A DNA stretch of 64,000 nt from Enterobacteria phage RB18: sequence record NC_054906.1. One strand, 5' to 3'. A model generated the notes under the pieces. The model saw only the letters and a list, made by a program, of their open reading frames with translations. It ran no database searches and was not told the origin of the DNA. Each line of letters starts with the position of its first letter. Positions within the stretch are counted from its first letter, which is position 1. Shown piece by piece: positions 36,191 to 37,781 of the stretch. A program made the translations under genes and the position numbers.

Positions 36191-36266
36191 TTGGTCGAGG
36201 CAGTAGGGATCGAACCTACGACCCAGGACTTAGAAGGTCCTTGCTCTTCCTTCTGAGCTATGCCCC
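36191..36266 (-). tRNA. tRNA-Arg (anticodon UCU)
   Basis: 76-nt cloverleaf on the minus strand; anticodon loop CUUCUAA; T-arm GTAGG-TTCGATC-CCTAC; encoded CCA. Confidence 0.8.
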
Positions 36267-36270
36267 GTAA

Positions 36271-36346
36271 TTGGGGTGACCGATGGGAGTCGAACCCATG
36301 ACTACGAGAATCACAATCTCGAGTTCTACCAACTGAACTACGGCCA
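36271..36346 (-). tRNA. tRNA-His (anticodon GUG)
   Basis: 76 nt; anticodon loop UUGUGAU; discriminator C; T-loop TTCGACT. Confidence 0.75.
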
Positions 36347-36460
36347 CATTAATACCTACTCCAACAATCAAGATGTCTTCACACGAAATTAAGAGAAGAG
36401 TGATCAGTTCAACCCTTATAATCGCGTCAAGTAGATATTAATGTGACAGTTGTCACAAAT

Positions 36461-36535
36461 TTGGCGGACGTGATAGGATTCGAACCTATAACCAATCGCT
36501 TAACAGGCGATCGCTCTGCCATTGAGCTACACATC
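36461..36535 (-). tRNA. tRNA-Asn (anticodon GUU)
   Basis: 75 nt; anticodon loop CUGUUAA; T-arm ATAGG-TTCGAAT-CCTAT. Confidence 0.75.
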
Positions 36536-36539
36536 CAAA

Positions 36540-36626
36540 TTGGTGGGGAGTGATGGAGTCGAACCACCCGAGTCGCAATGACAATGGATTTACAGTCCAC
36601 ACCGCTACCTCTACGGGATAACTCCC
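36540..36626 (-). tRNA. tRNA-Tyr (anticodon GUA), long variable arm
   Basis: 87 nt; anticodon loop CUGUAAA; type-II variable arm; acceptor GGGGAGT/ACTCCCC. Confidence 0.7.
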
Positions 36627-36632
36627 CTTAAT

Positions 36633-36707
36633 TTGGTGGCCCTGGGTGGAATTGAACCACCATCTGGCGATTATGAGTCGCTTGCTTGAACCTTCCAGCT
36701 ACAGGGC
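36633..36707 (-). tRNA. tRNA-Ile (anticodon CAU, lysidine type)
   Basis: 75 nt; anticodon arm GCGACTCATAATCGC resembles bacterial tRNA-Ile2; 1 nt from tRNA-Thr (dimeric precursor). Confidence 0.7.
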
Positions 36708-36708
36708 C

Positions 36709-36784
36709 TTGGTGCTGATTGACGGAATCGAACCGCCGACCTTCTCATTACAAGTGAGTTGCTCTACCTATTGAGCTAAATCAG
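36709..36784 (-). tRNA. tRNA-Thr (anticodon UGU)
   Basis: 76 nt; anticodon loop CUUGUAA; T-arm GGCGG-TTCGATT-CCGTC. Confidence 0.8.
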
Positions 36785-36789
36785 CAAAA

Positions 36790-36879
36790 CTGGCGGAGGC
36801 GATAGGATTTGAACCTATGAGTCGCCGGAGCGACTGCCGGTTTTCAAGACCGGTGCATTAAACCACTCTGCCACGCCTC
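36790..36879 (-). tRNA. tRNA-Ser (anticodon UGA), long variable arm
   Basis: 90 nt; anticodon loop CUUGAAA; long variable stem-loop. Confidence 0.8.
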
Positions 36880-36886
36880 CAAATAT

Positions 36887-37537
36887 TTATATATTGTTAA
36901 TTTGATTTAGAATTCTTTTTGCTTGAGTATGACTTACGCCAATATGCTTAGCATATTTAGACAATTCGCCACGTTTAGAAAAATCATATAATTTAGAAAT
37001 TTCTATTCTTCTTTTTCTTTCATCCGCAGAAACTTTTGCTTCGTTCGCTTTTGCTATTTTACGTTTAGCTTCTTGAGAATGAGTTTTACCAGCAAAGCCA
37101 TTCTTCATTAATCCATTTGAAGACCATCCTTTTAATTTTCCGTTAGAATGTGCCTTTTTAACACCCAATGAAATTAATTCGCGCTGCTGATCTGTCATAG
37201 GATAATTATTTATATGGTCCCATCCACCTTCACCTCCAAGTTTTAAATTATACACATCTGGTCTATTTAAAAACTCTTCTGTGACAATATTTTTCTCGGC
37301 TTCAAGCATAGATTCTTTATCGTCAAAATACTCTAATATTTCTTTAGAAAAATTTTCTATACCATATTTATCTTGGGCTCTTTTTAATAATTTACCAGAA
37401 CCCATATATCCATCATCTAAATTTTCGGTAGAATGCACACCAATATAAATTTTATTATTAATTTTATTTGTTATTTTATAAAGATAAAAATGCATATCAG
37501 TCCCTAATAAAGAACTGAGCGTCTCACGACGAGTCAT
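36887..37537 (-). CDS. segB: GIY-YIG homing endonuclease SegB-like
   Basis: GIY-YIG motif FYLYKITNKINNKIYIGVHS; inserted between tRNA-Gly and tRNA-Ser; the true start may be the internal ATG at 37495. Confidence 0.7.
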   Translation of the reverse strand: MTRRETLSSLLGTDMHFYLYKITNKINNKIYIGVHSTENLDDGYMGSGKLLKRAQDKYGIENFSKEILEYFDDKESMLEAEKNIVTEEFLNRPDVYNLKLGGEGGWDHINNYPMTDQQRELISLGVKKAHSNGKLKGWSSNGLMKNGFAGKTHSQEAKRKIAKANEAKVSADERKRRIEISKLYDFSKRGELSKYAKHIGVSHTQAKRILNQINNI

Positions 37538-37541
37538 AAAT

Positions 37542-37615
37542 TGGAGCGGATAATGAGAATCGAACTCACATCATCAGATTGGAAGTCTGAGGTAATGCCA
37601 TTATACGATATCCGC
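37542..37615 (-). tRNA. tRNA-Gly (anticodon UCC)
   Basis: 74 nt; anticodon loop CUUCCAA; acceptor GCGGATA/TATCCGC. Confidence 0.8.
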
Positions 37616-37620
37616 AAATT

Positions 37621-37707
37621 TGGTGCGAGAAGTGGGACTCGAACCCACAAGGAAATCATTCCGCAGCATTTTAAGTGCTGTGCCTTTACCAATTTGACCA
37701 TTCTCGC
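37621..37707 (-). tRNA. tRNA-Leu (anticodon UAA), long variable arm
   Basis: 87 nt; anticodon loop CUUAAAA; type-II variable arm. Confidence 0.8.
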
Positions 37708-37708
37708 G

Positions 37709-37781
37709 CTGGGAATAAAGGACTCGAACCTTTGCATCCTGGAATCAAAATCCAGTGCCTTACCAACTTGGCTAATTCCCA
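37709..37781 (-). tRNA. tRNA-Gln (anticodon UUG); CCA not encoded, abuts tRNA-Leu
   Basis: 73 nt; U1-A72 acceptor TGGGAAT/ATTCCCA; anticodon loop UUUUGAU. Confidence 0.75.

Follow-up and report, generated by a model that had tools for sequence, protein, structure and literature searches.

A region of the Enterobacteria phage RB18 genome, positions 36191 to 37781 of the 64,000-nucleotide (nt) stretch of NC_054906.1 that was analyzed and is here called the window, is very probably the tRNA operon of a Tequatrovirus (T4-like coliphage) of the AR1/RB51 type, encoded on the minus strand and read as one precursor that includes a chimeric GIY-YIG endonuclease gene and a structured leader of tRNA-His. 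The precursor would contain, in order, Gln-Leu-Gly, the endonuclease mRNA, Ser-Thr-Ile(CAU)-Tyr-Asn, the leader, His-Arg, a small open reading frame (ORF), rnaD, and rnaC (Table 1). The arrangement as such is neither unusual nor new, as a T-even tRNA operon with a Seg-type homing endonuclease is a known system that is present in dozens of deposited genomes. We conclude that the region is a known system with two modest new details, namely, a domain-swapped endonuclease and a tRNA-His leader.

ARAGORN analysis of the entire 64-kilobase (kb) window identified 10 tRNA genes, all on the minus strand and all between 36192 and 37781. In the direction of transcription the order is Gln(ttg), Leu(taa), Gly(tcc), an ORF, Ser(tga), Thr(tgt), a tRNA with a CAT anticodon, Tyr(gta), Asn(gtt), a gap of exactly 114 nt (36348-36461), His(gtg), and Arg(tct), which is the content and the order proposed by an initial annotation of this DNA. 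The His, Asn, and Tyr genes, the most exposed part of that proposal, were all called by ARAGORN, and no tRNA-Pro that it might have overlooked was found anywhere in the window. Nine of the 10 tRNAs scored between 59 and 74 bits with Rfam RF00005, the gathering threshold of which is 29. The other, tRNA-Tyr, was reported only under the clan member tRNA-Sec, with 34 bits and below the tRNA-Sec threshold of 47, and it is identical at 85 of 87 positions to the tRNA-Tyr of T6, for which expression and function have been shown by experiment (PMC13096335). We conclude that all 10 tRNAs are genuine. The spacing also agreed with the annotation, as tRNA-Thr and tRNA-Ile are 1 nt apart and the distance between tRNA-Gln and tRNA-Leu, which is 0 nt by the ARAGORN ends, is 1 nt when counted from the Gln discriminator base. 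The abutment of Gln and Leu resembles the Gln-Leu dimeric precursor of T4.

The tRNA with the CAU anticodon is most likely a lysidine-type tRNA-Ile that reads AUA, an identity suggested by sequence likeness. Its homologue in RB51 was named tRNA-Ile by the annotators of that genome, and the AUA codon is used in the phage at 2.9 times the E. coli frequency. In a comparison with E. coli ileX and metT, moreover, its anticodon stem-loop is presumably identical to that of ileX and its acceptor stem similar.

Much of the array is familiar from related phages. Over 2.6 kb the region shares 98% identity with Escherichia phage AR1, and approximately 1,050 phage records, mostly of Tequatrovirus, match it. 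The AR1 record (AP011113) has the same 10 tRNAs, endonuclease, and leader in the same order, but the endonuclease is mislabeled segD and its start is placed 14 codons early. In RB51 (FJ839693, deposited in 2009) the tRNA order is as here but the module of leader and tRNA-His is absent, and the same ORF is annotated as a "truncated SegB-like protein" of 202 amino acids (aa). The comparison genomes, T4, T6, T2, ESh33, RB51, and AR1 among them, were all rescanned with ARAGORN. The T4 cluster (NC_000866, 70.9 to 72.5 kb; Brok-Volchanskaya et al. 2008, PMC2330249) is this same operon and occupies an identical place in the genome, from the e.8/rnaC side to the trna.2-4/57B side, and is laid out as Gln Leu Gly Pro Ser Thr Ile / segB / Arg rnaD rnaC. 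The T4 record and the rescan both bear out what the initial annotation had stated, that T4 has eight tRNAs, Pro included, and lacks Tyr, Asn, and His, such that the repertoire of RB18 differs from that of T4; the leader is absent from T4 as well. The two phages have Gln, Leu, Gly, Ser, Thr, and Arg in common, in nearly identical form, although CCA is encoded in the tRNA-Ser gene here and not in that of T4. A CAU-anticodon tRNA of the Ile type occupies the same position in both phages but has diverged in sequence. In both, the tRNA precursor also contains a free-standing GIY-YIG endonuclease gene, and the catalytic domains are alike (96%).

T6 (AP018814; Chihara et al. 2026, PMC13096335) is laid out as Gln Leu Gly Thr Met Tyr / segB / Arg and lacks Pro, Ser, Asn, and His. 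The T2 layout is Gln Leu Gly Pro Ser / trna.1 ORF / Met Tyr Asn Arg, and ESh33 has 11 tRNAs, Pro included, and no endonuclease. An extended repertoire with Tyr and Asn was published in 2008 for T2L, RB1, and RB3 (PMC2330249), and as nearly identical sequences are present in GenBank, the array and its difference from T4 were already known.

The ORF between tRNA-Gly and tRNA-Ser (36887-37537, minus strand) matched the Pfam GIY-YIG domain (PF01541) with 26.8 bits against a cut-off of 22.6, in agreement with the claim that a GIY-YIG homing endonuclease gene splits the array. The true start is most likely M15, at 37495, because T4 SegB, the RB51 annotation, and the Klebsiella phage homologues begin there and because a Shine-Dalgarno sequence, AGGGA, precedes M15; the gene would then extend from 36887 to 37495 and encode 202 aa. 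BLASTP against T4 SegB gave 97 identities in 117 positions, confined to the N terminus: ORF residues 20 to 108 were identical and nothing aligned beyond. At the DNA level, identity to T4 segB was 100% for approximately 250 base pairs (bp) and was followed by abrupt divergence.

Identity was determined per domain from a six-protein alignment. The catalytic domain (aa 1 to 96) was 96% identical to T4 SegB and 99% identical to T6 SegB, whereas the DNA-binding half (aa 97 to 202) was only 19% identical to either. For homologues in two Klebsiella phages, identity in the two parts was 72% and 80% (KP13MC5-5) and 73% and 58% (Mineola), and the trna.1 product of T2, from which the catalytic core is missing, was 36% identical over aa 97 to 202. 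Thus, by sequence comparison, the endonuclease is a natural chimera in which a leader and catalytic domain of the T6/T4 SegB type are combined with a DNA-binding half from a different lineage. The residues that were mutated to inactivate T6 SegB, Y17 and G19 (PMC13096335), are present in the ORF product in a context identical to that of T6 SegB. Homing by T4 SegB and cleavage by T6 SegB have been established by experiment, for the shared catalytic module (PMC2330249, PMC13096335).

The C-terminal half contained a NUMOD3 match of 22.8 bits when scanned alone (cut-off, 20.4) and of 20.1 bits in the full-length scan, and a weak HTH_10 match (E = 0.023). A single-sequence AlphaFold model was poor (mean predicted local distance difference test score, 53) and was confident and helical only at residues ~160 to 200; the endonuclease sequence matched no solved structure at an E value of ≤1. 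The order of an N-terminal GIY-YIG domain, a NUMOD3-containing linker, and a C-terminal helical domain, here probably a helix-turn-helix (HTH), is that of the I-TevI-type GIY-YIG enzymes, although I-TevI itself is intron encoded and the endonuclease here is free-standing. In enzymes of the I-TevI type, target recognition is set by the C-terminal half.

Related genes differ from this one module by module. T6 segB has the same 46-nt leader except for 1 nt and nearly the same catalytic domain, but its C terminus is of the T4 type and it is located after tRNA-Tyr. T4 segB has a different 5′ leader, different first five codons, and an unrelated C-terminal half. The Jiaodavirus endonucleases (Mineola, AWY07037, and KP13MC5-5) are proteins colinear with this one, have a conserved leader, and are inserted directly after tRNA-Gly, but their catalytic domains are the divergent part and tRNA-Pro is kept directly downstream, whereas it is gone here. 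Comparison of leaders and domains therefore indicates four mosaics of three modules: leader A, catalytic domain A′, and DNA-binding half A at Gly/Pro in Jiaodavirus; A, B, and A at Gly/Ser in this window; A, B, and B at Tyr/Arg in T6; and B, B, and B at Ile/Arg in T4. Apart from their location, the window-type and T6-type genes appear to differ in little but the DNA-binding half. A domain-swapped endonuclease tied to the Gly/Pro junction appears to be undescribed in the searchable literature, in which nothing specific on a chimeric SegB variant was found. We note that the trna.1 ORF of T2, mislabeled "tail sheath monomer" in its record, keeps the NUMOD3/HTH half and has no GIY-YIG core, and it is therefore taken to be a relic of a window-type endonuclease.

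The initial annotation called the gene segB, a name that suits the catalytic half and suits neither the C-terminal half nor the insertion site. One could still argue that the ORF is a simple segB orthologue that was relocated within the array and retained the T-psi-C-loop specificity of T4 and T6 SegB; the T4 SegB site, of the form GGTTCRANTCC...CCAR, is 27 bp long and includes the T-psi-C motif GGTTCRANTCC (PMC2330249). GenBank records do say "SegB-like," the catalytic domain and 5′ leader are 96 to 99% identical to those of T4/T6 SegB, and the gene is located among tRNA genes, as SegB homologues generally are (PMC13096335). Orthology over the whole protein nevertheless fails at the C-terminal recognition half, which shares 19% identity with SegB and 80% with the other lineage. 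Orthology by location fails too, as the gene lies between Gly and Ser, in the slot of tRNA-Pro, and not between Ile and Arg as in T4 or between Tyr and Arg as in T6. Moreover, the Klebsiella phage relatives that have the same C-terminal domain share the insertion on the Gly side. We give simple orthology little chance.

The insertion site coincides with a missing tRNA. When the window, AR1, ESh33, and T4 were aligned, the tRNA-Gly and tRNA-Ser flanks were identical and the cassette replaced exactly the tRNA-Pro segment of ESh33 and T4. The site is polymorphic for presence and absence, as ESh33, UFV09, and TB37 have tRNA-Pro and no endonuclease, with flanks ~97 to 98% identical. The suggestion in the initial annotation that the endonuclease sits where a Pro gene might be expected was therefore correct, since ESh33 has tRNA-Pro at exactly that place between flanks that are otherwise ~98% identical. 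Among the Jiaodavirus genomes, Mineola and KP13MC5-5 have the order Gly, homing endonuclease gene, Pro, and in Nispero and Phi_KR1 Gly and Pro are adjacent and the endonuclease is absent. Since the same lineage of DNA-binding domain is found at Gly/Pro in two genera, we infer that the target may span the Gly/Pro junction or lie in the 5′ part of tRNA-Pro. In the Tequatrovirus version, tRNA-Pro was presumably lost through homing, with or after insertion. We note that the tRNA-Pro downstream of the KP13MC5-5 endonuclease is a strongly divergent allele relative to those of Mineola and Nispero and may represent a cleavage-resistant variant.

In the mechanism that we propose, the enzyme would bind and cut endonuclease-free genomes during mixed infection, with the break at or close to the junction of Gly and Pro or the 5′ part of tRNA-Pro. 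Recombinational repair would then copy the endonuclease gene and the flanking tRNAs into the cut genome. In this lineage tRNA-Pro would have been lost along the way, and a carrier without the target would also be safe from its own enzyme. The phage uses the CCA and CCU codons more than E. coli does, and loss of tRNA-Pro therefore looks like the cost of a selfish element rather than the removal of a redundant gene. Several points weigh against the proposal. The target of the chimeric enzyme could lie elsewhere than at Gly-Pro, and the loss of tRNA-Pro here may be an independent deletion. Moreover, Mineola keeps an unchanged tRNA-Pro right behind the endonuclease gene, and tRNA-Pro alone therefore cannot be the whole recognition site.

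An unrelated deletion of tRNA-Pro would also be expected if the endonuclease gene were an inactive or domesticated passenger that persists by linkage alone. Relics do occur at this locus, such as T2 trna.1 with its C-terminal half only. The ORF in the window, however, is full length and colinear with the Klebsiella phage homologues, and its catalytic domain is 99% identical to that of active T6 SegB, Y17 and G19 included. In addition, a protein at least 99% identical is encoded in approximately 52 phage records beside nearly identical siblings that are endonuclease-free, which is the classic pattern of an actively spreading homing endonuclease gene. We consider a passive gene improbable and homing the better account of the locus.

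Expression of the endonuclease is probably kept low twice over, by the embedding of its mRNA in a tRNA precursor and by a hairpin that holds the Shine-Dalgarno sequence. As to the first, the AUG lies 46 nt past the end of tRNA-Gly, and 6 nt separate the stop codon from tRNA-Ser. The 46 nt between tRNA-Gly and the AUG form a leader that differs by 1 nt from that of T6 segB and is conserved in Klebsiella phages Mineola and KP13MC5-5, and by these alignments the leader is part of the mobile cassette. As to the second, a 9-bp hairpin at 37497-37518 contains the Shine-Dalgarno AGGGA (37501-37505) and stops 1 nt short of the AUG. The hairpin is kept in Mineola and T6 with G-U/A-U exchanges, and it is the sole terminator-like match in the array. 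Hairpins that sequester the Shine-Dalgarno sequence also occur upstream of I-TevI and T4 segB (PMC2988022), and control by hairpin and by processing has been proposed for T4 segB (PMC2330249, PMC2988022). Translational restraint by the hairpin would be consistent with these precedents, although it is a point against such restraint that the hairpin is modest (z = −2.2) and leaves the AUG uncovered. An origin of the leader as the decayed 5′ half of tRNA-Pro was suggested by a MAFFT alignment and was rejected: local alignments were weak when compared with shuffles (z of about 2), tRNA-Gln scored equally well, and the homologous leader of Mineola showed no preference for Pro.

The second new detail lies in the 114-nt gap between tRNA-Asn and tRNA-His. 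When compared with RB51 and T2, the gap and tRNA-His together stand out as a clean insertion of 194 nt that separates Asn from Arg, and both junctions fall between CCA and A(A/T)T. The gap folds at −33 kcal/mol (z = −4.55), and none of 200 shuffles was equally stable. A closing helix of 14 bp pairs 36429-36442 with 36348-36361, its last pair uses U(−1) of tRNA-His such that the helix is flush with G1, and hairpins are present in the interior. BLASTN found the gap together with tRNA-His in other genera at 83 to 93% identity; the two are present or absent together and have been coinherited in at least six other T4-like (Straboviridae) genera. A covariance model built from four genera placed the leader directly 5′ of tRNA-His in Tequatrovirus, Karamvirus, Jiaodavirus, Winklervirus, Roskildevirus, and Kagamiyamavirus and gave matches in eight genera, of which one was weak. 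The element consists of a bare 12-bp hairpin in Kanagawavirus PEi20 and is 62 nt long in Gualtarvirus MP1. The upstream neighbor of the leader varies (Asn, Gln, or Ser), and its interior is poorly conserved in both sequence and length, ranging from the bare 12-bp hairpin to ~109 nt. A 15-mer scan of IMG/VR for the leader returned 52 loci, of which only 4 held up as homologues, the others being chance matches.

Covariation was measured on 15 distinct leader sequences. Over the whole structure, pairing was 91.8% compared with 82.6% in shuffles, and 14 pairs carried double changes where 7.2 were expected, a number reached in 0 of 500 shuffles. The closing helix was paired in all 210 of 210 cells, compared with 37 to 57% in slid controls; 5 of its 14 pairs had changed on both sides, and G-U intermediates were frequent. 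Because of the G-U pairs, the structure is specific to the transcribed strand. These figures have limits that weigh against the leader. For the closing helix alone the stricter counts were not significant (34/500 for double-change pairs and 243/500 for pair types), the 15 leaders are related by descent, and the alignment of the interior helices came from the covariance model itself. Taken as comparative evidence, the data indicate that the gap codes for a leader, conserved and structured, that is dedicated to tRNA-His and most likely acts in cis on the folding or 5′ processing of that tRNA. A structured leader on a tRNA-His without an encoded G−1 appears to be undescribed in the searchable literature, and nothing specific on a phage tRNA-His leader was found there.

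The main rival to a cis-acting leader is an independent stable small RNA, like the species 1 and 2 RNAs of T4, that tRNA processing would release and that would act in trans. The element is well folded and has a tRNA on either side, from which it would be freed by RNase P and 3′ trimming; operons of the T4 type make such RNAs, and rnaD and rnaC are also present in the window. Like the leader, T4 rnaC and rnaD (species 1 and 2) are structured, noncoding, part of the tRNA operon, and flanked by tRNA processing sites. They share no sequence similarity with it, however, and the leader is fused directly to the 5′ end of tRNA-His and has a highly variable interior, which argues against a sequence-specific RNA acting in trans. 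In addition, the conserved part is the helix that abuts G1 of tRNA-His, and the element is always coupled to tRNA-His whichever tRNA lies upstream. A direct comparison of the gap with rnaC and rnaD gave no meaningful alignment, the real homologues of those genes being located downstream at ~35564-35825. A trans-acting RNA is in our judgment unlikely.

The initial annotation had drawn attention to a hairpin in the gap. The palindrome is present, but its spacer is AC and had been misquoted, it is at chance level when taken alone, and the conserved element is the adjoining leader of ~95 nt. Palindromes with 7-bp arms are expected ~0.12 times per 114 nt, and the window contains 67, compared with 51 ± 9 in shuffles. 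Only the right arm is shared with other genera, where homology begins at that arm, and the left arm is not conserved outside Tequatrovirus; the palindrome was therefore rejected as a significant feature. A more skeptical view is that the whole gap is nonfunctional, a decayed tRNA or a recombination scar, in which the palindrome alone has meaning, for example as a terminator or a protein-binding site. The palindrome does fold at −7.2 kcal/mol (z = −3.3) and does sit at the insertion junction. Its chance-level size and missing left arm speak against that view, as do the lack of a following U-run, the conservation of the adjoining ~95 nt across genera, which equals that of the tRNA itself and includes compensatory changes, and the finding by ARAGORN and Rfam of no tRNA-like gene in the gap. 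A cmscan of 35000-39000 gave no Rfam match within 36348-36461 at an E value of ≤1. That the gap is junk seems to us highly improbable, and we retain the structured leader.

The leader adjoins a tRNA of unusual type. In the window, in Pet-CM3-4, and in PEi20, the tRNA-His gene has T at position −1 and C73, whereas E. coli hisR has G at −1; none of the three is thus of the E. coli type, with an encoded G−1 opposite C73. In the phages, U(−1) is instead base paired in the conserved leader helix. G−1 is the principal identity element for histidyl-tRNA synthetase, and in E. coli it is kept by an unusual RNase P cleavage. As G−1 is not encoded although it is the main such element, the maturation and charging of the phage tRNA-His is a testable question, and the leader helix that pairs U(−1) is an obvious candidate for involvement in the maturation. 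One possibility is that the leader dictates how or where RNase P or another nuclease makes the 5′ end of tRNA-His. Another possibility is that it marks a tRNA-His that works without G−1, perhaps as a replacement or decoy for host tRNA-His hit by anticodon nucleases.

Codon supply does not account for the tRNA-His gene, because His codons are not enriched relative to E. coli (CAU, 1.0-fold; CAC, 0.4-fold). The codons of the other nine tRNAs are used at 1.6- to 5.6-fold the E. coli values, with UAU at 2.3-fold and AAU at 2.7-fold, and supply as the reason for the extra tRNAs fits Tyr and Asn and not His. A role of the extra tRNAs in counter-defense is plausible. Colicin E5 cuts four tRNAs, among them Tyr, His, and Asn (PMC1635277), and phage tRNAs have been proposed, and T6 tRNA-Tyr has been shown, to counter defenses that target tRNA (PMC10264068, PMC13096335). 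T6 is the only phage for which SegB has been shown to drive tandem amplification of tRNA-Tyr against Septu (PMC13096335).

We tentatively extend both details, in a form that is possible but on balance doubtful: the leader would be an undescribed, functionally required element linked to U(−1), and the window and T6 endonucleases would be a domain-swap pair that retargets one catalytic module. With the same leader and catalytic domain, unrelated DNA-binding halves, and different sites, the two endonucleases would represent a clean natural case of GIY-YIG retargeting by domain exchange. If true, the exchange predicts a new specificity, directed at the Gly-Pro junction or at tRNA-Pro, for which the phage pays with a tRNA gene. 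The leader helix and the missing encoded G−1, in turn, raise the question of how the tRNA-His of T4-like phages is matured and charged in E. coli, which is relevant to current work on phage tRNAs as counter-defense.

Table 1. Features of the RB18 tRNA operon and its downstream flank, in order of transcription (window coordinates)
Feature	Position	Strand	Basis or remark
tRNA-Gln (UUG)	37708..37781	−	ARAGORN; Rfam, 67.4 bits; CCA not encoded; abuts tRNA-Leu
tRNA-Leu (UAA), long variable arm	37621..37707	−	ARAGORN, Rfam
tRNA-Gly (UCC)	37542..37615	−	ARAGORN, Rfam
46-nt 5′ leader of endonuclease gene	37496..37541	−	Alignments with T6 segB, Mineola, KP13MC5-5
Endonuclease aa 1-96, GIY-YIG catalytic domain	37208..37495	−	Pfam; identity to T4/T6 SegB
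Endonuclease aa 97-202 and stop codon, DNA-binding half	36887..37207	−	NUMOD3 at ~37052-37096; probable HTH at ~36899-36988
tRNA-Ser (UGA)	36791..36880	−	ARAGORN, Rfam; begins 6 nt past endonuclease stop codon
tRNA-Thr (UGU)	36710..36785	−	ARAGORN, Rfam
CAU-anticodon tRNA	36634..36708	−	ARAGORN, Rfam; 1 nt past tRNA-Thr
tRNA-Tyr (GUA), long variable arm	36541..36627	−	ARAGORN; identity to T6 tRNA-Tyr
tRNA-Asn (GUU)	36462..36536	−	ARAGORN, Rfam; 100% identical to T2 tRNA-Asn
Palindrome TGTGACA-AC-TGTCACA	36442-36457	−	5′ junction of leader and tRNA-His insertion
Structured RNA leader, ~95 nt	36348..36442	−	Fold z score, covariance model, covariation
tRNA-His (GUG)	36272..36347	−	ARAGORN, Rfam; C73, T at −1
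tRNA-Arg (UCU)	36192..36267	−	ARAGORN, Rfam
116-aa ORF (phrog_3355) between tRNA-Arg and rnaD	35823..36173	−	In T2, RB51, AR1
rnaD (species 2, ~35709-35825) and rnaC (species 1, ~35564-35702) homologues	35564..35825	−	98% identical to T4

Two observations concern the exposure of the array to other endonucleases. The tRNA-Asn gene is identical to that of T2, and the tRNA-Asn of T2L carries the preferred T4 SegB cleavage site GGTTCGAATCC...CCAA (PMC2330249); RB18 should therefore be a recipient for a T4-type segB in mixed infection. In Shigella phage CM8, an HNH endonuclease gene takes the place of tRNA-Gln; Tyr, Asn, and His are absent, and the SegB-like gene is kept. CM8 thus further marks the tRNA array as a hot spot of homing endonucleases.

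The homologues of rnaD and rnaC probably end the same transcription unit. In T4 the 116-aa ORF is absent and rnaD directly follows tRNA-Arg. A sigma-70 consensus scan found no promoter of the tRNA operon: 10 promoter-like sites were returned where 9.8 were expected, and none was in the gap on the transcribed strand. Upstream of the array, between a 174-aa ORF and tRNA-Gln (37782-37870, minus strand), there is a hairpin, GGGCTCT-TATTT-GAGAGCC, followed by TTTG. Past rnaC there is a terminator hairpin at ~35491-35512, followed by a U-run and then by a late-promoter-like sequence, TATAAATA, at 35476-35483.

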